IMG/VR virus record: IMGVR_UViG_3300003872_000001
Coordinates: 1-64,000 of that record
Reading direction: 5' to 3' (one strand)
Length of the DNA stretch: 64,000 nt
From: a virus
Under the pieces are notes generated by a model. That model was not told the DNA's origin. It ran no database searches and worked only from the letters and a program-made list of their open reading frames with translations. The translations under genes were made by a program, and so were the position numbers. The stretch's first letter is position 1. Each line of letters opens with the position of its first letter. Positions 7,097 through 63,163 of the stretch are shown here, one piece after another.

Positions 7097-9226
7097 ATGG
7101 CTAGAATAGATAAAATTTTTACACCAACTCCTGATACTGAGGGACTAGATATCCGTGAAGAGTTATATGGTATACACGCACTAAATCCATTCGCACAATA
7201 TAATAGCTCAGCTCGTCTAGCTATGATGACAAGTCACATTTCACAAATGCTACCGCTAGAAAATGGTGAAGAACCTATTATCCAAACTGGTCTAGAAAAA
7301 CAACTAGGTGAGAACACTTGGTCAGTTAAGATACCTAATGATGCGCGTATAGTGCAAATCATAAGTCGCTACGGTGGTATAGGTGTTAATACAGTTAATT
7401 CCATAACTGAAATTCTAATAGTATATGAAGATTTAGAAACATTAGAATTAGATTTCATCTCAGTTCCACATAGATTCGATCTGCATCCTAACTATGGATT
7501 TAAATATAGATGGAATACTGATATATTAAATAATCTCAGACCGGGATCTATTATAAATAAAAATACTATATTAGCTGATTCTCCTAATGTCAAAGAAGGC
7601 GGAGGATATGGATATGGAATAAATGCTAATGTAGCATTACTCACCATCCCAGAAGTAGCTGAAGATGGTATGGTAATTTCTGAAACTATGTCTAAGAAAC
7701 TTAAACATACAACATTCGAAAAAATAGTTGTAGAATATGGAGTTAATAGTATCCTTCTTAATCTTTATGGTGATGAAACTAATTATAGACCATTTCCAGA
7801 AATAGGAGAATCTATTAAAGATCATTCTATAGTTATAGGTCTACGACGTATAGACCCTAAATTAGCACCAGCTCTATTATCCGTTAAAGATACTATGGAC
7901 TATGATCCTATGTTTGACCGTTGCTATTATGCTAAATATCCGAACGGAATAGTTAGTGATATTAAAGTTTATCACTCTCCTAAATTCAAGAAGAATCTAT
8001 TAGATGGTACTTCTGAAATACCACTTAAATATGCAAATGCACTTACTAATTATTATAAGAAAATAATAGAGGTATATGAGGACGCACAAAAAGAATATTA
8101 TCGTAGATATAAAAGCTGGGATATGAAAACATCTGAAAAGCTTTCTAGATTATTAGTAGAAGCTTACGCATTAACTAATGTTAATAATGATAATATAAAA
8201 AGAACTTTTAAGAAAGATGAATTAGATATCATCAGAGTTGAAATTACTGTAATGCATGAAAAGAAAGTAGTAATCGGAAATAAAATTAGCGATTTATTCG
8301 GAGGAAAAGGAATAGTCACAGCTATATTCCCAGATAATAAAATGCCTAAAGATCCTCATGGCAATCCAGCTGATGTTATTGCTGATCCAACTTCTATATT
8401 TTCTAGAATGAATATCGGTAAATTATATTGGATGTATTTCGGAGGAGTTAGTAGGAAGGTTAAGAATGTAGTAATAGATAAAATATATGAGCTAGAACCA
8501 AATGTTGCACCAGATGTAGCTATCGAATCTATAGCTGAAGAGGAAGTAAATTCTCTTTATAATTATGTATTAGGTTGTATAGGGATTATAGGTACTGAAC
8601 AATTTGATTATTATAGAAATATAACAGATATAAATATACGGATAATGATTCTTAAAGAGATTATAAATAAAGAATTCTATATTAAGTTTTCCGTATCTTC
8701 TAAAAAACTTGCATACCAAGTTGTAGGTGAATTAAGGGATAGTATCTATGCACCTACATTAGTTCCAGTATCGTTTGAATATAATGGTGAAATACGAAAA
8801 ACAAAGCCTATACTCATAGCACCACTATACATTATCTTACTTAATAAAACAGCTGACAACTTCCTATCTACTGCCAGCGCTAAGCTTAATCACTTTAATG
8901 TACCATGTAGCATTTCTAAAGCAGATAAAGCAGTAACTCCTTGGAGGGACAGCCCTACTAAAACCTGGTCTGAAACAGAGCTCAGACTTATGGCAGCTTA
9001 TGGATCGAGAAAAGCAGCGGCAGAGTTCATGAATAGGGCTAGTGATATAAACGCTCATAGGTACCTCTATAGTCATCTGCTGAACGCTGATAAGCCAACG
9101 AACATAGCGAATATTATAAACAGAGATATAGTTCCATATGGTGGAGAAGCTGCACTAAAGCTAATAAACACTATCTTTAACTGTAGTGGAATAACTACTG
9201 AATATGTGGAGGAAGAATTAGACTAA
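7097..9226 (+). CDS. rpoB: Non-virion RNA polymerase beta subunit, C-terminal part (phiKZ gp71-73-like), uninterrupted
   Basis: NSSARLAMMTSHISQ, GINANVA..EDGMVISE, GNKISDLFGGKGIV, DPTSIFSRMNIG RpoB motifs. Confidence 0.92.
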   Translation: MARIDKIFTPTPDTEGLDIREELYGIHALNPFAQYNSSARLAMMTSHISQMLPLENGEEPIIQTGLEKQLGENTWSVKIPNDARIVQIISRYGGIGVNTVNSITEILIVYEDLETLELDFISVPHRFDLHPNYGFKYRWNTDILNNLRPGSIINKNTILADSPNVKEGGGYGYGINANVALLTIPEVAEDGMVISETMSKKLKHTTFEKIVVEYGVNSILLNLYGDETNYRPFPEIGESIKDHSIVIGLRRIDPKLAPALLSVKDTMDYDPMFDRCYYAKYPNGIVSDIKVYHSPKFKKNLLDGTSEIPLKYANALTNYYKKIIEVYEDAQKEYYRRYKSWDMKTSEKLSRLLVEAYALTNVNNDNIKRTFKKDELDIIRVEITVMHEKKVVIGNKISDLFGGKGIVTAIFPDNKMPKDPHGNPADVIADPTSIFSRMNIGKLYWMYFGGVSRKVKNVVIDKIYELEPNVAPDVAIESIAEEEVNSLYNYVLGCIGIIGTEQFDYYRNITDINIRIMILKEIINKEFYIKFSVSSKKLAYQVVGELRDSIYAPTLVPVSFEYNGEIRKTKPILIAPLYIILLNKTADNFLSTASAKLNHFNVPCSISKADKAVTPWRDSPTKTWSETELRLMAAYGSRKAAAEFMNRASDINAHRYLYSHLLNADKPTNIANIINRDIVPYGGEAALKLINTIFNCSGITTEYVEEELD

Positions 9227-9260
9227 TAGGTGACGGCTAAGTAGACACATTGGTGTCTAC

Positions 9261-9317
9261 TTGGTTGTTTAATCATAATTAAATATATATTGGTTGTTTA
9301 ATCATAATTAAATATAT
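9261..9317 (+). repeat. Tandem direct repeat, 29-bp period x2
   Basis: TTGGTTGTTTAATCATAATTAAATATAT at 9261 and 9290. Confidence 0.9.
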
Positions 9318-9330
9318 GGAAGGAAATGTA

Positions 9331-10761
9331 ATGAACGATGTTAAAAATATGACAATAGGAGAATCTGTAGGTAAAACTATAGGTAATTTTGATATATTGG
9401 AATCAGTTGGCGGTGGTAAAGTAAGAGCTAAATGTAATTTGTGTGGTAATGAAAATTATACAACTCGTTTCTATAGTATAAAGTCAGGTCATGCTAAAAG
9501 CTGTGGGTGTGTTAAACCAGCTAAATTAAATGTGAATGATCATATAGGTAAGAAATATAATAAACTAACTATACTAGGACCATCTACAGAACGAGATAAG
9601 GACAACAGACCGCTAGTAACAGCTAAATGCGATTGTGGTAATATTAAGAATTTGCGACTATCTGAAATCACTAATGAAAAAGTAAAATCATGTGGTTGTG
9701 GTCATAACAGTACTAATAGTTTAGGCCCTAAAGATGTAATAGGAACTACTATAGGAAATTTTGACATACTAGAAGCAGTTGGTGGCGGTAGAGTAAAAGT
9801 TAAGTGTAATCTATGTGGTAACAAAGAATATGTTACATCACTCTATAAGATACGTTCTGGACATACTAAAAGTTGCGGATGTAAAAAACGTATAGTTAGT
9901 GGTAAACCTTATATCGGTAATACATACAACTGGCTAACTATAATAGATGCCAAAGATGAAAGAGATGAAAATCGCAATCTTCTAGTTACAGCTAAATGTA
10001 AATGCGGTAATGTACGTGATATACCATTGAGTTGGATATTAAGAGGTAAGACTAAATCATGTGGATGTATGGCCAGAAGTAAAGACGGCTATGCGGGAGG
10101 TATACATAAGAGTACATATGATGTATGGCGACAAATGTTAAAAAGATGTATGCAGTCTGGTAAACATGTAACTGATGATCCTAGAATATCATTTGTGAAT
10201 AAAGATGTACCACATGTTCGTTATAATGATTATGGTGCTAGGGGTATAACTGTAGATCCTAAATGGTATGATGTTAAGAAATTTGTAGATTGGTATGAAG
10301 CTAATATTAAAGACGGTGAAACAATGGATAGAATAGATAACGATAAAGGTTACTATTCTGATAATTTAAGATCAGCTACATCTAGTATGCAAAATATGAA
10401 TCAACGTGTTAGGAAAGATAACACATTAGGTTACAAGGGTATAACATATACAGATAGTTCTTATAGATGGGCTATAAAGTTAAATAATAAAACTTACCAA
10501 AGAGAAGGATTTACAACACCTGAGTTAGCATTAGTAGCTAGGAACTTATATATAGTTGAAAACAAGTTACCACATGATATACAAAGTTGTTCATCTTGTA
10601 AAACTATATTGGAATATGATAATAGAATCAATCAGTATGTTTTAGCGGTGATAAAAGATGGTCTTAAACATATAACTATATTTAAGAAAGAAGAGCTTGA
10701 TAATTACAAAAAAGTTCTTGATGGTATGAATAAAATGGAGATTGGTTCTGAGAAAGAATAA
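9331..10761 (+). CDS. Free-standing HNH-type homing endonuclease with four Cys-rich N-terminal repeats and an AP2-like domain
   Basis: 4x KC..CGN...KSCGC; YDVWRQMLKRC..YGARGITV..MDRIDNDKGY..DNLR; NTLGYKGI AP2-like tail. Confidence 0.85.
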   Translation: MNDVKNMTIGESVGKTIGNFDILESVGGGKVRAKCNLCGNENYTTRFYSIKSGHAKSCGCVKPAKLNVNDHIGKKYNKLTILGPSTERDKDNRPLVTAKCDCGNIKNLRLSEITNEKVKSCGCGHNSTNSLGPKDVIGTTIGNFDILEAVGGGRVKVKCNLCGNKEYVTSLYKIRSGHTKSCGCKKRIVSGKPYIGNTYNWLTIIDAKDERDENRNLLVTAKCKCGNVRDIPLSWILRGKTKSCGCMARSKDGYAGGIHKSTYDVWRQMLKRCMQSGKHVTDDPRISFVNKDVPHVRYNDYGARGITVDPKWYDVKKFVDWYEANIKDGETMDRIDNDKGYYSDNLRSATSSMQNMNQRVRKDNTLGYKGITYTDSSYRWAIKLNNKTYQREGFTTPELALVARNLYIVENKLPHDIQSCSSCKTILEYDNRINQYVLAVIKDGLKHITIFKKEELDNYKKVLDGMNKMEIGSEKE

Positions 10762-10800: not shown

Positions 10801-12753
10801 ATGTCTAAAAAAGACTATTTACAAGCTGTAGAACAACTTAGGAAGTGGGGTTATGCGTATTATGTAAAAGATGAACCTATAGCTTCAGATGATGAGTATG
10901 ATAAACTATATGATAAAGTTAAGATATTTGAGAATCAACATCCTGATGAGGTAGATCCTAAGTCACCTACTTTTAATGTAGGAGGCGTGTCTAAAAGTTT
11001 TAATAGAGCTAGTCATAAGGATCCTATGTGGAGCCAGCTAGATATATTCAATATTGAAGATGCTACTAGGTGGATAACTAAGATAAGGATACAGTATCCG
11101 AATACAAAATTTGTAGCTGAGTTTAAAGGCGATGGATTAAGTTTAAAGTTAACATATAAAGATGGTAAATTAGTGAGAGCTGTAACTAGAGGTGATGGTA
11201 AGATAGGAGATGATGTTACTAATAATGCTATGGTTATAGATAATATACCTAAACGTCTTATGATAGATAATAAGTTGGTGGTGGGTGAAGTAGATGTTAG
11301 CGGTGAGATCATTATGTATAAAAAAGATTTTGATCGTTTGAATGCTAAGCAAGAAAAGCTTGGTATGCCATTATATGCTAATCCTAGAAATGCAGCAGCT
11401 GGTACTTTAAGGAGTTTAGATAGCCGTGTTGTTAGGAATAGGAATTTACATTTTTTAGCATGGGAATTATCTTATGGCGGACCTAATATAAAAAGCGAAT
11501 ATAGTCGTATCATTTGGTTGGGTAATTTAGGATTTACTATTCTTGATACTTATAAATTTGAATCTCCTGAAGATTTTGAAGATATAGCTAAGGATGCATA
11601 TTTTGATAGACCTAATTTAGCATATGGTATAGATGGTTTAGTTATCAAAGTGGATGATGTTACACTGCATAAACAGATTGGTTATACTGCTAAGTACCCT
11701 AAATGGAGCATTGCATATAAATTTCCTGCTGTTGAGAAGACCACTAAGATATTAGATATCATAACACAAGTTGGTAGGTTGGGTACAGTGACCCCTGTAG
11801 CTTTATTAGAGCCAATAGAGATAGATGGTTCTGTGGTCTCTAAAGTTACACTGCATAATTTTAGAGATATTGAAATGAAAGATATTAGAATAGGTGATGA
11901 GGTACTGTTGATAAAAAGTGGTGATATTATACCTAAGATAACTAAAGTCTTTAAAGATAGGAGAACGACTGATATAGTAGTGTATAGACCTCCTACGCAT
12001 TGTGGATGTTGTAATACACAACTTATTAGAGAAGATGTATTCAGGAGATGTCCAAATGAATCATGTCCATGTAGGATAAAAGCTAGTATAACACATTTTG
12101 CAGATAGAGCTCATATGGATATACATGGTTTTGGCGATAGTGTGGTATCAGATTTAGTAGATAAGAATTTTATTAAAACTCCACTAGATATATATAAATT
12201 AACTAAAGAACAACTTATGTCATTAGATGGATTTAGTCATAAGAAAGCTGAAAATTTATTACATGCTATTGAAGCTAGTAAAGGTAAAGAAGAGTATTTA
12301 GTTATAGCATCTATAGGGATACCTAATATTGGTAAGACTGTTATGAAGCAACTAGTTGATAGGTATCCAGAGATGTTATTAGATTTAAGTGCTGATTTGA
12401 TCCTTAGTATTAAGGGTATGGGTGAAACTATAGCTAATAGTTATGTAGTGAATATAAGAAATAAGTATAAAAGTCTTATTGAAGAATTATTGGTAATTAC
12501 ACAAGCTAAGAAATCTATAAAAAAGGAAGGAAAGTTTAAAGATAAAAAGTTCGTTATTACTGGAAAAATGATACCGAATCGAGAAACTGTTAAAAAATAT
12601 ATTGAAGATAACGGAGGAGACGTTAGGAGCAGTGTTAGTAGTGATATAGATTATTTAGTAGTTGGTGAAAAAGCTGGTAGTAAATTAGCAAAAGCTAAAA
12701 AATTAAATATAAATATTATAAAACAAGAACAATTAAACGGAGAAAAAATATGA
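10801..12753 (+). CDS. ligA: NAD-dependent DNA ligase
   Basis: EFKGDG adenylation motif, TRGDG, NPRNAAAGTLR, AYKFPA, QVGRLG, Cys4 zinc finger, HhH and C-terminal BRCT (VGEKAGSKL). Confidence 0.97.
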   Translation: MSKKDYLQAVEQLRKWGYAYYVKDEPIASDDEYDKLYDKVKIFENQHPDEVDPKSPTFNVGGVSKSFNRASHKDPMWSQLDIFNIEDATRWITKIRIQYPNTKFVAEFKGDGLSLKLTYKDGKLVRAVTRGDGKIGDDVTNNAMVIDNIPKRLMIDNKLVVGEVDVSGEIIMYKKDFDRLNAKQEKLGMPLYANPRNAAAGTLRSLDSRVVRNRNLHFLAWELSYGGPNIKSEYSRIIWLGNLGFTILDTYKFESPEDFEDIAKDAYFDRPNLAYGIDGLVIKVDDVTLHKQIGYTAKYPKWSIAYKFPAVEKTTKILDIITQVGRLGTVTPVALLEPIEIDGSVVSKVTLHNFRDIEMKDIRIGDEVLLIKSGDIIPKITKVFKDRRTTDIVVYRPPTHCGCCNTQLIREDVFRRCPNESCPCRIKASITHFADRAHMDIHGFGDSVVSDLVDKNFIKTPLDIYKLTKEQLMSLDGFSHKKAENLLHAIEASKGKEEYLVIASIGIPNIGKTVMKQLVDRYPEMLLDLSADLILSIKGMGETIANSYVVNIRNKYKSLIEELLVITQAKKSIKKEGKFKDKKFVITGKMIPNRETVKKYIEDNGGDVRSSVSSDIDYLVVGEKAGSKLAKAKKLNINIIKQEQLNGEKI

Positions 12754-12974
12754 CCAGAGAAGAAATAGTTGAAAATTTAAATATTGTAAATGCAGCGATG
12801 AGTGCGTGTTCTGAGCGAATGCAAGCAAAACGACAAGAGATCAGTACACACAGTGGAGAGGATACTAGTCACGAAGAAGAGGAATTAATAGATTTACAAG
12901 AGCAGTTCAATATGATCAGTAATGAATCAGAAAAGTTTTCTAATATGTTAATGGATCTAGATAGAGAGTTATAG
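12750..12974 (+). CDS. Small acidic coiled-coil hypothetical protein
   Basis: ATGA overlap with ligA; GGAG RBS. Confidence 0.65.
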   Translation: MTREEIVENLNIVNAAMSACSERMQAKRQEISTHSGEDTSHEEEELIDLQEQFNMISNESEKFSNMLMDLDREL

Positions 12975-12993
12975 CATATGCTATAACTCTCTA
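12962..12993. terminator. 32-bp perfect palindrome, bidirectional terminator
   Basis: TAGAGAGTTATAGCATATGCTATAACTCTCTA spans both convergent stop codons. Confidence 0.7.
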
Positions 12994-14262
12994 ATCTTCT
13001 ACATAATGCTTAAACTTATCATAACGTATTTTAACTTCAAATATAGTACCTTTTTTTATTTTTGTCCAGATTAATTTATCTGTACCATGGTACTTTTCTA
13101 ATATCATTCTATTGATATACATACCGACTCCGCGTTCATAACTTGATACATCAGTTTTAGTAGTGATGTTGATATTGAATATTTTATTTTTAACATAATC
13201 TGGAATACCGTCACCATTATCTATAATTTGAATATATAGATATTTTTCATCTTTATTAGCTAGTTTAAATTCTAATTTAGTACTATGCGCATCAATACTA
13301 TTTTTAATATGATTAATGATGATATTACTAAAAGAACCATTAGTTAAACCTTCATCGTGATAAATAGAATATTTATTAAATTCATCATCAATGACCAGAT
13401 TACTTATAGAATAGTCATTACTTATTTTAACTATATTAATGCTAGATTGTAATAACATATAAACACTTTTATTACCATTACTATTTTCAATACTTTTAAA
13501 ATCACCTATTGGTCTTACAATACCATATACATTATCTAATGCAGTTTCAGCATCTAGAATATCGTCTTTTATTTCACTTAAGCAAGATTGAGTTTTGCTA
13601 AAACAAGTATTTAAACAAGTCGCATTCATAGATATATCTTTATTTAAGATATACTTCATATCGTCTAATAATGACTTAATAACTAATAACGGACTATTGA
13701 GTTCATGATTAATATTAAGTGCTATATTGGTAATTATATCATGCCTTAAATATTCTTCTTTATTATTAATCGAAGATAGATATCCTTTTCTTTCAATAAT
13801 TAATATATGTTCAATAACTAATGTAGTTACTATGAACATCATAATGAAATATAAAAGACTATATAATAATATATATAGATTGTTTTTAATAATAGGAACA
13901 TAAAAATAATATCCATTTACATCTAGTGGAATGTAAATAACATAATGGTCAATAATATAATGTGGGAATTTCCTATAATGTACACTATTATCATATATAT
14001 TAATTAAGTATCCTTGATCTTTACTACCTTGTTTAAATTTGAACATATATTTTGCACCTACTGAGTAACAATACTTATTCATATCAATTTTTTTATCATA
14101 TGTTAATAGTGTATTCAATGTTAGTTCAGTGGTTTTTTCATTAGCATGGAATACTAAAATTATACTTATAATAAATCCAGTAAGGATAAATAGAATGAGT
14201 AAACTACTATATGTTAATGGAACTTTATATTTACGTATAAGATGTCTATAATAAAGCTTCAT
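12991..14262 (-). CDS. Membrane sensor histidine kinase
   Basis: Two hydrophobic TM segments; H-box NINHELNSPL, N-box NHIKNSIDA, G1 DNGDGIP, F-box IFNINITTK, G2 RGVGM. Confidence 0.93.
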   Translation of the reverse strand: MKLYYRHLIRKYKVPLTYSSLLILFILTGFIISIILVFHANEKTTELTLNTLLTYDKKIDMNKYCYSVGAKYMFKFKQGSKDQGYLINIYDNSVHYRKFPHYIIDHYVIYIPLDVNGYYFYVPIIKNNLYILLYSLLYFIMMFIVTTLVIEHILIIERKGYLSSINNKEEYLRHDIITNIALNINHELNSPLLVIKSLLDDMKYILNKDISMNATCLNTCFSKTQSCLSEIKDDILDAETALDNVYGIVRPIGDFKSIENSNGNKSVYMLLQSSINIVKISNDYSISNLVIDDEFNKYSIYHDEGLTNGSFSNIIINHIKNSIDAHSTKLEFKLANKDEKYLYIQIIDNGDGIPDYVKNKIFNINITTKTDVSSYERGVGMYINRMILEKYHGTDKLIWTKIKKGTIFEVKIRYDKFKHYVED

Positions 14263-14812
14263 AGCGTGTCCCCTTAAAAAGATCTTTTAGTAATCCAATA
14301 TTAGTGCTTATTGGAGTATCTTTATAAACTACATGGTCTATAAGATCATCATCACTTATTTCATTATAGCATTTATAAAGCCCGCTAGCTGTGTCCCTAG
14401 ACAGCACATGCCCGGTGATGAATAGATATATTAAATCATGATTAATCTTATGTAGAATATTAGTCAAAATGATACCATTAAAGCCATGTAAAGAGTTGTC
14501 GCTACTTACATAATTACTACCATAAGTAATATCAGCTATAACAATATCGATACTTAAACCATCATTTATATATAGTTCTTTAACTATATCTATGCCGGCA
14601 GTATTACCACCTGAGTATACTATATTAAAATGTTTATCAACATTGTAGCGGATTATCAATTTTTTAAATAATTTAATTATGGAGTTGTAATCATCCACAA
14701 TCAATATAGTAGGTTTATCTTTATCGTAGTTAGATGGTAACTTTGCAGGAGTTACAGTTTTTAGGAAATCAGGCGATATAACATTCTCAATTATATATTG
14801 TGTATTTTTCAT
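14246..14812 (-). CDS. Stand-alone response regulator receiver (CheY-like) protein
   Basis: ILIVDD, IDIVIAD (phosphoacceptor Asp), FNG, FITG, VVYK; no output domain. Confidence 0.88.
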   Translation of the reverse strand: MKNTQYIIENVISPDFLKTVTPAKLPSNYDKDKPTILIVDDYNSIIKLFKKLIIRYNVDKHFNIVYSGGNTAGIDIVKELYINDGLSIDIVIADITYGSNYVSSDNSLHGFNGIILTNILHKINHDLIYLFITGHVLSRDTASGLYKCYNEISDDDLIDHVVYKDTPISTNIGLLKDLFKGTRYEALL

Positions 14813-14814
14813 TA

Positions 14815-15393
14815 TTATCTTTCTCCTTTTCCGGTATGTATATTTAAATTTTTAGCTACAGTAGAAACTGTTTTATCAGTAGCTACTAGTGCGCTATTAT
14901 CTACTTCATGTATAGTAGACAGCACTAATATTAATATCAGTATCCACATGATCGAATTCGAGACTGCACCACTTGGCACGATGTTAGGTAGTAGGGTATC
15001 TTTTATAAAACTTTTACTAGATGCAGTATCAGCATCAGTTGTTTTTTCCGTTTCTATATTAAATGTTTTGATTATACTTTCTACATGTTTAACACTAAGT
15101 AATATATGATCTAATATTTTTATCATTTCACCGTCTTGTATCTTTGTTGTGGTAATCTTCTGTGTTTCCATATTGCTTAATATTAATGTAAGATATTCTA
15201 TTGCATTTTGCATATTGTTATCTTCAAATTCTAAATTATCTAGATTATTTATTAATTTATCGTTTATATTATTTTTAGAATTATCTTCAGTTATAGAATT
15301 GATGGCATGTTTTAGTCTAGTTTTATCTTCAAGTACTTTTTCTATTAGATCTTCTAAAGAATTAATTAATATATGGTTTATATCGTCAGTCAT
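14815..15393 (-). CDS. Coiled-coil protein with a C-proximal TM helix, first gene of the two-component operon
   Basis: Helical N-terminus; IMWILILILVLSTI; AAGGGG RBS; 2-nt gap to next gene. Confidence 0.7.
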   Translation of the reverse strand: MTDDINHILINSLEDLIEKVLEDKTRLKHAINSITEDNSKNNINDKLINNLDNLEFEDNNMQNAIEYLTLILSNMETQKITTTKIQDGEMIKILDHILLSVKHVESIIKTFNIETEKTTDADTASSKSFIKDTLLPNIVPSGAVSNSIMWILILILVLSTIHEVDNSALVATDKTVSTVAKNLNIHTGKGER

Positions 15394-15417
15394 AGTAGCC
15401 CCTTAAATAAGTTCAGT

Positions 15418-15427
15418 ATCAAGAAAA
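15418..15427 (-). promoter_or_regulatory. Putative late-class promoter motif TTTTCTTGAT
   Basis: Identical 10-mer at 19196-19205; similar motifs 20-40 nt upstream of several structural genes. Confidence 0.45.
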
Positions 15428-15459
15428 TAGTGACATATAATATATGTATAGATCCCTAA

Positions 15460-15499
15460 TTGACTTTGCGCTAAAGTCAAATATATAATATTAAAATAG
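15460..15499 (+). promoter_or_regulatory. Putative early promoter
   Basis: TTGACTTT-GCGCT-AAAGTCAA perfect inverted repeat followed by ATATATAATATTAAAATAG. Confidence 0.7.
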
Positions 15500-15567
15500 A
15501 AGCGTAGAAAAATCATATATGTTACTATATAATGATGTGACGTGTATACAATAATTAAGGATTTCAA

Positions 15568-17616
15568 ATGAGTACTAAAATACAAGCGATACCAGTAAGA
15601 GAGTTTTTAAAATTAGAACCACAAGAATTATTAAGTGGATTGAAGTCTTCTAAGGTAGTTCTTTTTGAAGATAATGTTATAGCAACTATGAGCGCAAATG
15701 AAGTAGTTGTTAATAGATATTTATGGGAAGTTTACAACTTAATACCAGAATTACCATTAGTGTCTAAATATAATATTACTAACTATTATACAAATGGAAT
15801 CTTTTCTTCTAAGAGTATTAATAAATTATTTGCAGTTATACTAGAAGACATGTTTAAAAAGATACTCATACCGTCTAAGGACACATCTTATAAAAGTCTT
15901 ATTTATAAACAAATGTACATCATTAACAACAGGATATATAATGAAATAGTTTATGCTAACTTGCATTATGCATCAAGTATAAATATATTGGATTTATTAG
16001 ATATACAACTTAATACTAAATTGATTACAGCTATGCAACATGTAGCAGAAGTAGAAACACCTGAGTCTATAGAAGAAACTTATAGAATCTTAGATGAAAT
16101 AATGTATGATGATGAGACTGTACGGAAAAGTACAGTAGCTAGGAGTTATGTATCTGGACAGATAAATACAAATCAAGCTAAACAAGTATTAGCCTCCAGA
16201 GGATTTGTAGCTGAGATAGATGGTAGTATTTTCTCTAAACCTATAGCAGCTTCATATACATTGGGTCTTACTAATATGTATGATGTCGGGGTAGAGTCTA
16301 GACCTGCGTCTAAAGCACTTTTTCTAGCAGATAGGGCTATTCAAGATAGTGAGTATTTTTCTAGAGAATTACAATTAGTTTGTATGGAAGTAGAAAGCAT
16401 CGTGGAAGGAGACTGTGGCAATACGACATTGACTGAATGGAGAGTTAGAAGTGCTGATGAAACAATTTCTGGTAAATCTGATCTTAATAACCTTATAGGT
16501 AAACATTTCTTAGATGAAAATACTAACCAAATGAGTATTATTACGAAAGATATGACAGATCTAATAGGAAAGACAATAAAAATAAGATCAGTTATCCATT
16601 GTAAACATCGTAATAAACATAAAGTTTGTTCTGCTTGTTTTGGAGAATTAACACATAGTCTTTTTAAACATACCAACCTAGGTCATATAGCGGCAGGTAC
16701 ACTAACTCAAAAATTAACTCAATCGATCTTATCTACTAAACACCTAACTGGAAGTGCACACGGTGGTACTATCTCGTTAGATGCAATGGCTGCTAGATTC
16801 TTTGTAGTTAAGAATAAAGATGGTTATGCATTTAAACAGGGAATAATTAATAAAGATGTTAAGGTAAATATGATCATAAATCAAACTGATGTATTTGGGT
16901 TTAAACAGTTAATGTCAGGAACAGATATGACTAAATTAGATCCATCTAGAATATCTAGAATATCTAGTATAGTCTTAAGTATAGAACGTAAAGGTAAGAT
17001 AGAATATTTTCCTATCATTATCAAAGATGGTAATAAATATGGAAGCTTTACGTATAAGTTCTTAGAGTATATTATAAAAACTGGGTATGATGTAGATAAC
17101 CAAGATAGATATGTTATCAATTTAGATAAATGGAAATCTAATGTACCTATATTGAAACTTCCACAGATTGAATTTAGTTTCATAGTTCTAGCTAACAAGA
17201 TTAAATCCATGCTTAAAAGTATGAAGGTTGTTAAAGGTACATATAGTCTAGAGACACAAGAAAGTTTACTACAAAAATTATTCGATACAATCAATAGTAA
17301 ATTAGATATAAATATCGCACTTTTAGAGATTATAGTTTATGCATTTACAATCAGTAGTATAGTTGAAAGAGATTATACTTTAGGTAGATTTTCTGAAGAT
17401 AAACAATTGGCGGGTATCATGGATTGTGTGAGTAATAGAAGCCTAGGCTCAGGCTATGCATATCAACGCGTTCCTAAACAAATCTTAGACCCACACTCAT
17501 TTTCTAAAAGAAAACGATCAGATCATCTACTAGATGTAGTAGTTAAACCAAATGAAACATTATTAGATTACTATGGAGGTCTCACTAATACAGAAATAGT
17601 ACCTAAACATATTTAA
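15568..17616 (+). CDS. rpoC: Non-virion RNA polymerase beta-prime subunit, C-terminal part (phiKZ gp74-like)
   Basis: ASRGF, SEYFSRELQL, GDCG..IRSVIHC..VCSACFG zinc site, TQSILSTKH trigger-loop-like motif. Confidence 0.92.
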   Translation: MSTKIQAIPVREFLKLEPQELLSGLKSSKVVLFEDNVIATMSANEVVVNRYLWEVYNLIPELPLVSKYNITNYYTNGIFSSKSINKLFAVILEDMFKKILIPSKDTSYKSLIYKQMYIINNRIYNEIVYANLHYASSINILDLLDIQLNTKLITAMQHVAEVETPESIEETYRILDEIMYDDETVRKSTVARSYVSGQINTNQAKQVLASRGFVAEIDGSIFSKPIAASYTLGLTNMYDVGVESRPASKALFLADRAIQDSEYFSRELQLVCMEVESIVEGDCGNTTLTEWRVRSADETISGKSDLNNLIGKHFLDENTNQMSIITKDMTDLIGKTIKIRSVIHCKHRNKHKVCSACFGELTHSLFKHTNLGHIAAGTLTQKLTQSILSTKHLTGSAHGGTISLDAMAARFFVVKNKDGYAFKQGIINKDVKVNMIINQTDVFGFKQLMSGTDMTKLDPSRISRISSIVLSIERKGKIEYFPIIIKDGNKYGSFTYKFLEYIIKTGYDVDNQDRYVINLDKWKSNVPILKLPQIEFSFIVLANKIKSMLKSMKVVKGTYSLETQESLLQKLFDTINSKLDINIALLEIIVYAFTISSIVERDYTLGRFSEDKQLAGIMDCVSNRSLGSGYAYQRVPKQILDPHSFSKRKRSDHLLDVVVKPNETLLDYYGGLTNTEIVPKHI

Positions 17617-19163: not shown

Positions 19164-19200
19164 GAACTATAGCAAGATGCTATAGTTCTTTTTCTTTTTC
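19163..19200 (+). terminator. Intrinsic terminator
   Basis: AGAACTATAGCA-AGA-TGCTATAGTTCT plus T-tract. Confidence 0.75.
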
Positions 19201-19235
19201 TTGATTATGCATTAATTAAAAAATAAGGATACAAT

Positions 19236-19859
19236 ATGAGTTCATTATTAAGGATTGATAACGAGGGTAATTTAAGATTTAACGATATGGTTGTTGATCT
19301 TTCACAAATTGTTATTAGAGAAGATACCGGTACATTAAAAGATGTACAAGGTAATATTATTGATATATCTGCTATGCTAGGAAAAAATTATAATGCAGGT
19401 AACCTTGCAAATACTACAGTAGTTAAAGCACTAACAGCTGATAATGCTAACAAATTAGCAGGACAGTTACCAGATTACTATTTAAGTAAAGGTAACTATA
19501 AGAATACTATACCGGTAACAGCTACTCCCGCATTAGCAACTGTGGGTAGTGTAGTAAGTCAAACATCTAGTACATTGACTATTTCTAATTTCGATAGTAA
19601 AGCAAACTATGTTATTACAAGCAATATAGGCACATTATCATCTGTTAGTAATGCTGGCACATTTACTTATACGGCTCCAGATATAACATCCTCAACTACT
19701 GACACTGTAGTAATATTTGCTACTAAGGCAGGTGAGATAAGATCTAGTGAGCAAATAGTAAAAATACCATTAATCCCTTTACATATTACATCTGCTGCCG
19801 CATTAATAAATCCAAATTTTAGTGCAAATGGTGTTTTAGATATAGGGTTTAAATATTAA
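19236..19859 (+). CDS. Putative virion fibre/adaptor protein with Ig-like domain (paralog of next gene)
   Basis: ADNANKLAGQLPDYY fibre-type motif; LTISNFD..FTYTAP shared with 19874-20443. Confidence 0.55.
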   Translation: MSSLLRIDNEGNLRFNDMVVDLSQIVIREDTGTLKDVQGNIIDISAMLGKNYNAGNLANTTVVKALTADNANKLAGQLPDYYLSKGNYKNTIPVTATPALATVGSVVSQTSSTLTISNFDSKANYVITSNIGTLSSVSNAGTFTYTAPDITSSTTDTVVIFATKAGEIRSSEQIVKIPLIPLHITSAAALINPNFSANGVLDIGFKY

Positions 19860-23374: not shown

Positions 23375-23417
23375 GTTTTCATTTTCATGATATTAAAATA
23401 TAAGTAAAGGATCTATT

Positions 23418-23918
23418 ATGGAAACACCTACAAGAGAAGTGCAACTCACCATAGCATTAAAATACCGACCAAAACCTAAAACTAATTTTTTTTGGGGATT
23501 AGTTATAAAGGGGATACAATGGAGAACTAATTCTAAATATTTTCATTCAGAACTTATTATAGATAATGAATGGTTATCAGCTTACCCTATTAAAGGTATT
23601 CGTTTACATCCACTTAGACCTACTTTAAAGCATGATCAGTGGTTCTTTTTAGATTTGGGTAAACATACTGTTACCGAAGAACAATATAAAAAGATTATGG
23701 ACTTCATACACGATGTTGTTGGATCTAGATATGACTTCTTAGGCATTTTCTTTTCACAACTTATTAAAATAGGTGTTGATGATAAACACCAATGGTTCTG
23801 TTCAGAAATTGTATCTAAAATATTACAACTATTTTTAGTAAAAGAGTATATAGATATAGTGCCTAATGATTTAGCACCAGGGGACCTTTATAGGTTATCA
23901 AAATATAGGTTGAAATAA
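23418..23918 (+). CDS. Permuted papain-like (NlpC/P60, YaeF/YiiX-type) amidase-family protein
   Basis: SKYFHSEL (His), YDFLGI, WFCSE (Cys) in permuted order. Confidence 0.8.
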   Translation: METPTREVQLTIALKYRPKPKTNFFWGLVIKGIQWRTNSKYFHSELIIDNEWLSAYPIKGIRLHPLRPTLKHDQWFFLDLGKHTVTEEQYKKIMDFIHDVVGSRYDFLGIFFSQLIKIGVDDKHQWFCSEIVSKILQLFLVKEYIDIVPNDLAPGDLYRLSKYRLK

Positions 23919-32483: not shown

Positions 32484-33008
32484 CTAAACCCTTTTCATCC
32501 ATCCACTAAAGAATTTTTCTTGTTTAGGATTTCTTTTTACGATATTATAATATCGCATAAACTGTAATCCACTAATTACTTTTAGTAAAGATGGTTTATC
32601 ATAACTTTCCAATGAATGTAAAGCTTTTAAGGTAGTGGGACCCGCAAAGCTATCTACTGTCATATCAGGAAATAATTTCTGATTTCTATTCATTAGGTTT
32701 AAAGCTTCTTGTAAAAACTCTGCAGCAGACCCTACACCTTGGTTAACAGCTGAATCAAACAATTCTATAGCTAATTTATTACTAAACTCACCAATTGTAG
32801 TTAAGTTCATATGTTTAGTATTCCAATAATTATCATAATATATTTTCTTAGCGTCAGCTAATGTTAAATTTTTAATATCTAAATTTGGATAATCCGCTTT
32901 AGCTATTCCATATTTTGTTTCGCCGCCTGGGTCAGTTGGGTCATTTACATAACCACCTTCAAATCCTATTATTACCCCAAATGCTTGGTTGTATAATTCT
33001 GAATCCAT
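32484..33008 (-). CDS. Endolysin, glycosyl hydrolase family 108 with peptidoglycan-binding domain
   Basis: EGGYVNDPTDPGGETKYGI; FDSAVNQG; F.GW.R C-terminus. Confidence 0.93.
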   Translation of the reverse strand: MDSELYNQAFGVIIGFEGGYVNDPTDPGGETKYGIAKADYPNLDIKNLTLADAKKIYYDNYWNTKHMNLTTIGEFSNKLAIELFDSAVNQGVGSAAEFLQEALNLMNRNQKLFPDMTVDSFAGPTTLKALHSLESYDKPSLLKVISGLQFMRYYNIVKRNPKQEKFFSGWMKRV

Positions 33009-33111
33009 GTGTGTTCCTTTATTATTTGTCCGACTTAGAATAACTAAGCGGATAGATTGTGTAAGCAGGTTTCACTGCTCAATGAACTATTGAAACTTTG
33101 TATTTCCTTCT

Positions 33112-49235: not shown

Positions 49236-49892
49236 TTAAAGATTACTTCGTATCATCATAGCATGTAACATAGCTTTTACAGTATTAGTAGAAACTACAC
49301 CAGTAGCATAGTTTGCTAGTACTTTTTGACTAACAGAACCTTGGCTTATTAACAATTTAGTCATAGCATCTTTACTGCCTAAATCACCACCACGATCTTT
49401 CATAAGTTCTTGAGCACTCTCTTTAATACCCATACCAACTAATATTTGTAATTCAGGTAAAGTTAATTTGCTAGCTTTACTTTCTCCAGTAACTTGACCA
49501 GTTAATAGATCTATTGTTTTATCATCCTTAGGAATAGATATTTTTTTAGTTAAGATTTGGCTAGCACGTCTTGTTGCTATATTAAGAACTAAATATTTAT
49601 TTGGTGTAATGTAAGGATGTTTTTTAGCAAATCGTAAACGTTGAAATACTGGCTCACCTAACTCCTCTACTATTTTCATACATTTTTTAGTGTCTAATTT
49701 AATATCAGATCCATTAGGTGCAACGACAGATAATTTAATTTTTCTATCTCTTAGATCTCTCATAAAGTTATCAAAATCTTTATTAGACATATTTTTAAAT
49801 ATAAGATCTTTATATAGTTTCTTATTCTTGGTACCAGCTATCTTTTCTATATAAGTAAGTATAGTTTGTTCAGCTTTTTTTCTATCGGCCAT
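49236..49892 (-). CDS. Virion RNA polymerase small beta-like subunit (phiKZ gp149-like)
   Basis: RRASQIL.KKISIP..DLLTGQ.TG.SK.S.LTLPE.Q..RGGD, homologous to the RpoB C-terminus. Confidence 0.8.
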   Translation of the reverse strand: MADRKKAEQTILTYIEKIAGTKNKKLYKDLIFKNMSNKDFDNFMRDLRDRKIKLSVVAPNGSDIKLDTKKCMKIVEELGEPVFQRLRFAKKHPYITPNKYLVLNIATRRASQILTKKISIPKDDKTIDLLTGQVTGESKASKLTLPELQILVGMGIKESAQELMKDRGGDLGSKDAMTKLLISQGSVSQKVLANYATGVVSTNTVKAMLHAMMIRSNL

Positions 49893-49934
49893 TGGGATTC
49901 CTTATATATGATGTAATATATTACATCATATGAT

Positions 49935-50708
49935 TTAAAACATTATTGGTATACATATATTGGTAGGTGTCTTAATACCTAAGTATTTTACACGATATGT
50001 TTCACGATCAGACTGAGTTATCGTATATGTTGGAATAGGACTAGGTGTAGTGAATACGTCCTTAGGAGTACCAAGATTTAATAAACCAGCTAATTGATTC
50101 TTCTTATCTAAAACACCTACTTCTGGGGAATCTACAATTGTTTTCCATACATTATTACTACCATTACTTGCTAGTCCGTGCATAGTTACAACTTGGTGTT
50201 TATTAGATATGTCCTCTTTAACTGTAGGTAATTTAAATATAGTTTCTAAAGGAAGAACGGCATCACTTGCTTCTTCATTCATAATACTACCACCACCAAC
50301 TCTATAACCCCACACATCATAACTATTACCCTTTAAGTTTTGATCTATATATTCAAGTTCAGGTATGAGTATAATATCCATATACACTTTATCATAATAT
50401 GCACGCATATAGTTATTAGTAACAGATGATGTAAATGATGTTAGAAATATAAATCTGTAATCTTTATTCTTTTTATAATAATTAGTATCAACAATGGTAT
50501 TATTAGCGTCTTTACGACTTAAAACTAAAGGTGAATAAGTACTTGTTTTTACTTCTCTTCTGCTTATTAATGTATCACTAATGCTCATTAACGGTAAGGT
50601 CTCTTTAATAGTGATAACTAAGTTATTTCCTGTTAACGTTTGTTTTTTGCTTTCACTAACAGCTAACTCTACTTTACGTGTCTGAAAGTCTGGTTTTTTA
50701 TATATCAT
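49935..50708 (-). CDS. Hypothetical protein
   Basis: 257-aa ORF with AAGGA RBS. Confidence 0.6.
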   Translation of the reverse strand: MIYKKPDFQTRKVELAVSESKKQTLTGNNLVITIKETLPLMSISDTLISRREVKTSTYSPLVLSRKDANNTIVDTNYYKKNKDYRFIFLTSFTSSVTNNYMRAYYDKVYMDIILIPELEYIDQNLKGNSYDVWGYRVGGGSIMNEEASDAVLPLETIFKLPTVKEDISNKHQVVTMHGLASNGSNNVWKTIVDSPEVGVLDKKNQLAGLLNLGTPKDVFTTPSPIPTYTITQSDRETYRVKYLGIKTPTNICIPIMF

Positions 50709-50727: not shown

Positions 50728-51120
50728 TTAAATATCAAGAAAAATGTTATTAGTTATAAAGTATGGTAAAACTATTTCTTTCATAAGAGTAACCCAGTCT
50801 TCAATGTAACCATCATTTGCAATAAACGGCAATACGTTATTTATAATATTACCACTAACACTTCTGTACACTAATAACTCGGTTATAAATAATCTATTTA
50901 TAATTATCCTCTGCACTACTTGGTTCTTATTATAGATTGATTTAATATCAGGATTATTCAAAAACTTTTTACTGTGGTCTTTATTAGTAGTTGCTATATG
51001 GTCAGCTATTAGCTTAACCAAATTAATATCTCCCGATGCTCTGGGTTCATTATATAAATCCATAACATTAACTATTGGTATTGGTTTTTCTTTCTTTTTT
51101 GTAACTTTATTAACACTCAT
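50728..51120 (-). CDS. Hypothetical protein
   Basis: AGGAG RBS, operon context. Confidence 0.6.
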   Translation of the reverse strand: MSVNKVTKKKEKPIPIVNVMDLYNEPRASGDINLVKLIADHIATTNKDHSKKFLNNPDIKSIYNKNQVVQRIIINRLFITELLVYRSVSGNIINNVLPFIANDGYIEDWVTLMKEIVLPYFITNNIFLDI

Positions 51121-63125: not shown

Positions 63126-63163
63126 TTGTATACCTATAGCCTTATTTGGCTATAGGTATACAA
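63126..63163. terminator. Bidirectional hairpin terminator
   Basis: TTGTATACCTATAGCC-N6-GGCTATAGGTATACAA between convergent genes. Confidence 0.75.

Follow-up and report, generated by a model that had tools for sequence, protein, structure and literature searches.

Gene content and predicted products of the operon

The present analysis concerns a window of 64,000 nucleotides (nt), i.e. positions 1 to 64,000 of IMG/VR virus record IMGVR_UViG_3300003872_000001, and more precisely an operon of three minus-strand genes (hereafter the trio) predicted to encode a two-component signalling system of the phage itself. The source is a viral contig of 107 kb, about 40% complete according to CheckV. As given by the list of open reading frames (ORFs), the trio consists of:

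14815..15393, minus strand: gene 1, 192 amino acids (aa), tail-anchored helical membrane protein
14246..14812, minus strand: gene 2, 188 aa, stand-alone, highly divergent receiver domain
12991..14262, minus strand: gene 3, 423 aa, class I (HisKA-type) sensor histidine kinase

Genes 1 and 2 are separated by a gap of 2 nt, genes 2 and 3 overlap by 17 nt, and the three genes are translationally coupled. Coordinates and spacing all match those of an earlier note, written from the sequence alone, which had described three tightly coupled minus-strand genes.

The product of gene 3 matches the Pfam HATPase_c domain (E 1.6e-11); the Pfam HisKA model itself gave no score. A word-indexed search returned 43 relatives, all of them metagenomic and about 400–450 aa long, and in an alignment of 25 homologues the invariant positions include N183, H186 and E187 in the H-box, N321 in the N-box, D348, G350 and G352 in G1, and G378 and G380 in G2. 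An F box completes the set of the CA domain, beside N, G1 and G2. With the kinase family profile, the alignment to Thermotoga maritima HK853 spans its entire DHp+CA region (residues 25–247, E 8.5e-15), and FixL aligns at the H-box, whereas CheA chains match in the ATP-binding domain only. Concerning topology, a first transmembrane (TM) segment starts around residue 20 and a second around residue 131, with a loop of 92 aa between them (83–110 aa in relatives). H186 sits about 36 residues past the second TM segment, so that gene 3 has neither a HAMP nor a PAS domain. When compared with the ESM Atlas, the 160 N-terminal residues gave generic sensor-kinase matches, with weak Cache/GAPES-like leads only. 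The H-box reads HE-L-N-S/T-P, and HE-x-N-S/T-P is the form found in bifunctional HisKA kinase/phosphatases. To judge by these motifs, gene 3 is a class I HisKA kinase with an intact catalytic core, a predicted kinase activity and an outward loop of about 90 aa. The invariant boxes, the two TM segments and the 92-aa loop thus bear out the intact two-TM kinase with a ~90-aa extracytoplasmic domain of the first description.

As for gene 2, an AlphaFold2 model built with the family alignment as input (predicted local distance difference test, pLDDT, 94.2; predicted template modelling score, pTM, 0.90) has five strands and five helices in the (beta-alpha)5 arrangement of receivers, with two additions: an N-terminal extension of ~34 aa and a beta-hairpin (residues 99–111) inserted after beta3. 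Among the Foldseek matches listed from the PDB, almost all are receiver domains (HupR, CheY, ArcA, RcsB, PmrA, DesR), with E-values of ~1e-5 and TM-scores by target of 0.6–0.75. At the profile level, no PDB chain was matched at E<=0.01 by a profile of 25 receiver family members. In BFVD, hybrid kinases from giant viruses of eukaryotes come nearest among the viral structures, together with a few response regulators from uncultured Caudovirales, at 11–21% identity. The positions expected of a receiver active site were followed in the 150 best representatives of the family:

D40 and D41, end of beta1: kept in 99% and 99%
D94, end of beta3, predicted phospho-acceptor: kept in 99%
T/S133, end of beta4: kept in 98%
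K164, after beta5: kept in 96%

The positions of the quintet D40-D41-D94-T133-K164 agree with the strand ends of the model, and such conservation indicates that the canonical receiver residues are under strong selection. The claim of a receiver-only protein with all canonical residues is upheld by this quintet, by the fold and by the lack of an output domain.

Searched against 1.84 billion cluster representatives, the receiver profile found no more than 380 proteins at E<=1e-3, a number that drops to 321 at E<=1e-10 and to 112 at E<=1e-30; the best 150 of the 380 are all 162–292 aa long and score 103–232 bits. With an ordinary receiver profile, far more matches would be expected, and the family is therefore a discrete, strongly diverged clade. 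On the evidence of profiles and model, it is a divergent clade of the CheY-like superfamily and not an ordinary member of PF00072. In 18 of the 150 family receivers, a longer N-terminal extension holds a CxxC...C...C motif, possibly a zinc ribbon (e.g. L006:7039-7749, L007:6868-7677, L011:6868-7566 and L012:6638-7315, where L numbers designate the loci described below); this motif is absent from the 188-aa form of the window.

Gene 1 had no match in Pfam, PHROGs, PADLOC, NCBIfam, the PDB (by profile) or the ESM Atlas. Its AlphaFold2 model, of low confidence, is all-helical, with four helices over residues 2–120, a linker, a TM helix at about 143–164 and a short C-terminal helix, which amounts to an N-terminal part of ~140 aa, a single TM segment and a tail of ~30 aa. 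The membrane nature of the third protein, already proposed in the earlier note, is confirmed by this single TM segment near residue 143. In 39 homologues, the TM segment starts at a median residue of 122 of 163 and leaves a 23-aa tail. Its flanks carry 2.4 K/R on the N-side vs. 1.5 on the C-side, and 0.6 D/E vs. 2.2, respectively. This charge bias, together with the lack of an N-terminal signal, points to an N-in, C-out tail anchor with a cytoplasmic helical domain, and indicates that this domain would share a compartment with the receiver and the kinase core. The window copy is 36% identical to its counterpart in L002, a relative considered below, and those of the other loci are too diverged for BLAST. 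When a profile of the window-type gene-1 clade was aligned with all the other first genes by hhalign, a probability of 93.9% (E 1.6e-7) was obtained. Neither an Hpt domain nor a phosphatase could be retained for gene 1, which has no conserved His and no invariant residue.

Occurrence of the trio in phages and cellular genomes

An alignment-based scan of IMG/VR yielded 26 loci that encode relatives of the kinase, the longest of the contigs measuring 227 kb. The receiver gene lies upstream of the kinase gene in 24 of them, either directly or with one small gene between (L008, L020). As regards the two exceptions, L013 is cut by the contig end and L023 has an unrelated 185-aa gene instead. The full ordered trio, in which a gene of 140–217 aa with a single C-terminal TM segment precedes the receiver gene, was found in 23 of the 26 loci, with the same order and orientation and tight spacing; L010 has the receiver and the kinase and no gene-1-type gene. 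Seven of the 19 source records are 94–100% complete (110–223 kb), three of these with terminal repeats. Because its three genes are kept together across many large phages, near-complete genomes included, the trio is supported as a domesticated phage unit, as the earlier note had put it, and not as a recent bacterial pick-up. The small gene found between receiver and kinase in two loci (L008:7011-7607, L020:6918-7529) codes for an extra protein of ~200 aa with two TM segments and belongs to no known family.

In nine phage records searched as a whole, no Response_reg match above the Pfam cut-off was found anywhere, and each record has one HATPase_c gene of the histidine kinase type, the other matches being proteins of 251–1354 aa, two of them weak. 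With no canonical response regulator in these nine records, a DNA-binding output is lacking at the genome level, which fits the suggestion that the system acts post-translationally.

Outside this set, DNA and protein searches of 50,697 GenBank phage records with the window genes and family members found no family member, the sole match being a weak and unrelated kinase match in a faecal phage contig. For prokaryotes, a narrow, pattern-based scan was run on one genome per species (185,579 species, a partial sample of genomes) and gave three matches. Two are tiny contigs of metagenome-assembled genomes (MAGs): a 2-kb contig of a Gracilibacteria MAG with a receiver-kinase pair (L028/L032; receiver E 2e-35) and a 1.4-kb contig of a Woesearchaeota MAG with a family match (L029). 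Both are probably phage fragments binned with the MAGs. The third is an ordinary Shewanella kinase, at 25% identity, from a genome without a family receiver. In 401 Pseudomonadota genomes, the receiver profile found only five matches, all generic receivers scoring 26–32 bits. Near-identical bacterial chromosomal copies, named in the earlier note as what would speak against a phage system, were thus found neither in the 185,579 species genomes nor in the 401 Pseudomonadota genomes, and the trio appears, as far as sequence searches go, to be phage-specific in the collections searched.

Flanks and signals of the operon

The trio is surrounded in the window by the following genes and regions:

7097-9226: a further RNA polymerase subunit gene, 50% identical to the phrog_3295 subunit of L002
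9316-10761: HNH endonuclease, 481 aa, phrog_374 (E 7e-66), between this polymerase subunit gene and ligA
10801-12753, plus strand: NAD-dependent ligase (ligA), eight Pfam ligase domains
between ligA and the kinase gene, plus strand: orf74, a 74-aa ORF convergent with the kinase gene
15394..15567: intergenic region from which the trio and the next RNA polymerase subunit gene diverge
15568-17616, plus strand: phiKZ-type RNA polymerase subunit, phrog_3015 (E 2e-140), with a helicase gene next to it

The ligase domains and the phrog_3015 match establish ligA and an RNA polymerase gene as flanks, as first described. The polymerase subunit at 15568-17616 is 25–31% identical to its counterparts in cultured jumbo phages, and the HNH endonuclease contains duplicated zinc-ribbon/CapR-like repeats.

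The order of these genes was compared with that of L002, whose proteins are 65% (polymerase subunit), 54% (helicase), 47% (receiver) and 46% (kinase) identical to those of the window. As in the window, the helicase and polymerase subunit genes of L002 are divergent from gene 1, which is followed by the receiver and the kinase genes. The kinase gene of L002 is convergent with another polymerase subunit gene (phrog_3295). The HNH endonuclease, ligA and orf74, which in the window lie between polymerase subunit and kinase, are absent there in L002. It follows that the trio is the stable resident and the HNH/ligA/orf74 block the variable part. The idea of an operon inserted antisense is accordingly not supported, since the trio of L002 occupies the corresponding site, with RNA polymerase genes on either side.

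The same comparison bears on whether the trio is a passenger, that is, a recently captured bacterial operon without a role in the phage, or a product of chimeric assembly. The G+C content, 27% at 12–16 kb vs. 30–32% in the flanks of this segment (ca. 30% for the window), could be read in this way. Against this stand the same synteny in an independent relative at 46–65% protein identity, the 26 viral loci with strongly conserved catalytic residues and the failure to find close bacterial copies. The presence of the exact gene 2 sequence on four contigs on record also argues, with the synteny of the independent contig, against a chimera. Such an origin is thus extremely improbable and effectively refuted.

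Three kinds of signals were recognised around the operon:

12963-12992: perfect palindrome of 30 nt (32 nt with 12962 and 12993), where orf74 and the convergent kinase gene end
12970-12985, 19168-19184 and 63135-63154: TATAGC..GCTATA hairpins, two of them at gene ends
15418-15427, minus strand: promoter-like 10-mer TTTTCTTGAT, its 3' end 24 nt upstream of the gene-1 ATG

The perfect palindrome reported at the operon end is real, and both convergent genes have their stop codons within it. Its RNA folds at -24.0 and -23.6 kcal/mol on the two strands (z -5.5 and -6.7) and has no U-tract; it is probably a bidirectional transcription stop, a function predicted here. A different palindrome occupies the same place in L002. 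The TATAGC..GCTATA hairpin core, found three times vs. 0.25 expected, may define a family of terminator elements. The hairpin at 19168-19184 directly precedes a copy of TTTTCTTGAT at 19196.

Besides the copy in front of gene 1, exact copies of TTTTCTTGAT are present in the window at 19196-19205 (plus strand) and 50734-50743 (minus strand), i.e. three copies vs. 0.39 expected, a number reached in 1 of 100 shuffles. Each of the three is followed, ~24–30 nt further on, by an ATG. L002 has a partly conserved form of the 10-mer, TTTATTGAAT, at the corresponding position, and an exact copy stands just upstream of the gene-1 homologue in the distant L007. Because of this excess of copies near ATGs and of the conservation in L002 and L007, TTTTCTTGAT is probably a real promoter-like element. 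It could not be retained as a general promoter of the trio, since the motif or a similar one occurs only in the window, L002, L007 and perhaps L014. Behind the copy at 19196 come the genes of two unannotated proteins (at 19236), and behind the third copy an operon with a polymerase subunit gene among its members (49236–50708); the late expression proposed in the earlier note is not supported. The earlier note was thus right on the 10-mer recurring at 19196, but the "structural block" that it placed there is not confirmed, as the gene block after 19196 has no PHROG match. Another site, TTTTCATGAT at 23382-23391, differs from TTTTCTTGAT by one mismatch and may be a fourth copy of the motif; it lies ~26 nt upstream of the ATG of a gene (23418-23918) coding for a 166-aa, enoyl-CoA hydratase-like protein. 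On the plus strand of the divergent intergenic region, a sigma-70-like site (TTGACT-18-TATAAT, 11 of 12 positions) was found at 15460-15489.

Predicted phosphotransfer and its possible roles

Taken together, the trio is likely to be a self-contained, phage-specific three-gene phosphotransfer module, its activity being predicted from sequence and models, and the phages which carry it probably sense something outside the infected cell. During infection the kinase would insert into the host inner membrane and read an extracytoplasmic or membrane cue, autophosphorylate on H186 and hand the phosphate to D94 of the receiver. It may also serve as the phosphatase of the receiver, as suggested by the HE-x-N-S/T-P motif. 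The phosphorylated receiver would then alter a protein-protein contact, with no DNA binding, and its likeliest partner would be the cytoplasmic domain of gene 1, either as an effector or as an accessory protein tuning the kinase.

Several observations weigh against this interpretation. With Pfam Response_reg (PF00072), gene 2 scores 15.8 bits, below the cut-off of 30.2, and it lacks the usual K-P pair after beta5. Most relatives of the kinase have two cysteines in the extracytoplasmic loop, and the window kinase has lost one of them. The role of gene 1 as a partner is proposed from synteny and topology only, its model has a pLDDT of 63, and no column is invariant among the 39 gene-1 sequences; this last result argues against an enzymatic role (Hpt, phosphatase) and for one as a scaffold or in contacts. 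Finally, the flanks differ widely between loci and designate no single function: the neighbours of the trio include clamp loader, DNA polymerase, helicase, ribonucleotide reductase and polymerase subunit genes, and those of a few tail proteins.

Several known systems resemble the phosphotransfer module in part. The HK853-RR468 pair of T. maritima (PDB 2C2A, 3DGE) likewise combines a class I kinase with an adjacent gene for an output-less single receiver; however, RR468 is a canonical receiver, whereas that of the phage does not reach the Pfam threshold, is extended at its N-terminus and contains an inserted hairpin, and the bacterial pair is without the third membrane protein of the phage module. 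CheY, Spo0F, DivK and CpdR share the (beta-alpha)5 fold and the acidic pocket of the phage receiver and exert their output via protein contacts, but identity with these single-domain regulators is 12–21%, and the phage module encodes no CheA, Hpt or other relay partner. In LiaF-LiaS-LiaR, a small membrane protein is co-transcribed with a kinase and a regulator; LiaR binds DNA and LiaF is polytopic. The likeness of LiaF to gene 1 is one of arrangement, and no homology was detected.

Detocs is also a three-gene two-component operon with a stand-alone receiver (DtcA kinase, DtcB buffer receiver, DtcC receiver-effector), and serves in bacterial defence, its kinase being a soluble TPR protein and its effector an enzyme (bioRxiv 10.1101/2023.01.24.525353). 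The trio could not be assigned to it: none of the three proteins has a PADLOC match or an effector domain, the kinase sits in the membrane, and the remaining gene codes for a membrane protein. The temperate Clostridium difficile phage phiCDHM1 carries homologues of bacterial agr genes, including the membrane kinase AgrC, and no response regulator (PMC3901668). A membrane kinase is thus common to both, but the module described here comes with a receiver of its own, and the searches turned up no close relatives in cells. In jumbo phages, a divergent receiver domain, cREC, is reported to be linked to NAD/ADP-ribose enzymes and never to accompany histidine kinases (Iyer et al. 2021, PMC7824862). 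Gene 2 was not retained as a cREC, since 24 of the 26 loci have its family in front of a kinase gene. A full-text search of the literature found no paper on a phage kinase-receiver module or on the trio.

Concerning the process controlled by the phosphotransfer module, envelope or lysis control is the best-supported guess. In L003 and L005, which come from related phages (that of L005 has a complete genome of 161 kb which bears terminal repeats), a holin gene (phrog_3427, E 1e-28) lies 14–32 nt upstream of the trio on the same strand, and a phrog_315 endolysin gene stands divergently beside it (L003:5531-6561, L005:5510-6656). This is the only clear adjacency to a lysis cassette among the 26 loci. 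In ca. 10 loci, the kinase gene is followed by that of a protein of ~85–125 aa (typically ~90 aa) with an N-terminal TM segment, to which seven loci add a protein of ~370–416 aa (~390 aa) with an N-terminal hydrophobic segment. Two of four of the ~390-aa proteins tested passed the Pfam cut-off of DUF3373; a DUF3373 search of the window's own record gave no match, and the control sequences likewise none. These genes downstream of the kinase may form an extended envelope module that the window lacks. The smaller gene, joined in most cases by the larger one, was seen in L009, L011, L012, L014, L018, L023, L025 and L027, at about 8800–10600 in each locus.

A lysis or envelope timer is accordingly one possible reading, to which a rather low probability is given. 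It would sense the state of the envelope or a superinfection, and the phosphorylated receiver would act via gene 1 on holin or envelope proteins, so that lysis is delayed or triggered, as in the RI-T lysis inhibition of T4 but by phosphotransfer. The holin and endolysin of L003 and L005, the ~90-aa membrane protein and the ~390-aa DUF3373-like protein are all in keeping with it, as is the site of action of all three module proteins, in the membrane or close to it. In the window, however, the endolysin homologue (32484-33017, phrog_315, E 2e-48) lies 17 kb from the trio and no phrog_3427 holin was detected; most loci are found beside replication, nucleotide-metabolism or polymerase genes; and gene 1 is unlike any known holin or antiholin. 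For lack of a PHROG or Pfam match, and with the endolysin so distant, gene 1 was also discarded as a holin or antiholin itself. The lysis-timing idea of the earlier note thus gains a holin directly upstream of the trio in the L003/L005 lineage and loses ground in the window. In the endolysin match of the window, the reported frame includes one TAG.

In its fuller form, the lysis and envelope reading supposes a private, insulated phosphorelay, in which an outside cue leads to phospho-dependent binding between receiver and gene 1 and, from there, to lysis timing or envelope remodelling. This chain is put forward tentatively. The state of the envelope, superinfection and a host-density signal are conceivable cues for such a phosphorelay, again with more doubt than confidence.

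Insulation also bears on a second reading, in which host signalling is hijacked: the kinase would act on host regulators, or the receiver would be a CheY mimic or a phosphate sink, with motility or stress responses reprogrammed. CheY and other single-domain receivers do work in this way, and so does DtcB, the buffer protein of Detocs (bioRxiv 10.1101/2023.01.24.525353), and a membrane kinase with an external loop could stand in for a host sensor. Yet the receiver profile finds almost no cellular receivers, which suggests an insulated private pair and not mimicry, and kinase and receiver are strictly co-inherited. The kinase is of class I (HisKA), with its His in a DHp helix, and is not a class II kinase of the CheA type with Hpt/P1 and P2 domains, so that chemotaxis mimicry through a CheA-CheY pathway was rejected and the proposed interference with chemotaxis finds no support. 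As a whole, a hijack of host signalling is considered unlikely.

A third reading takes the phosphorylated receiver to bind a subunit or factor of the phage RNA polymerase and to turn the cue into a middle-to-late switch of the phage's own transcription. The trio is indeed found beside genes for large phiKZ-type polymerase subunits in the window, L002, L003, L005 and L023, but a phiKZ-type polymerase (phrog_3015) match was obtained in only six of the 19 source records and none in the other 13 trio-bearing records, five of which are 94–100% complete. Such a switch would, moreover, leave the membrane-anchored third gene unexplained, and it is rated as less probable still than the hijack.

Two-component signalling is the main way in which bacteria sense their surroundings, and phages are usually thought to exploit or block the two-component systems of their hosts and not to run their own. 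The chemistry predicted for the phosphotransfer module is textbook, which cannot be said of its being owned by lytic giant phages, of a receiver so extremely diverged or of a membrane partner dedicated to it. A conserved trio whose receiver is missed by standard models implies long-standing selection for sensing by the phage itself during infection, and bears on the decisions of lytic giant phages, i.e. lysis timing, response to superinfection and envelope remodelling. With three small genes and clear catalytic residues, the family offers a testable entry point, and the orthogonal, insulated kinase-receiver pair, its activity being so far a prediction, may be of use in synthetic biology. If the proposed reading is true, these phages would possess a decision circuit built on two-component chemistry and not on peptides or repressors.

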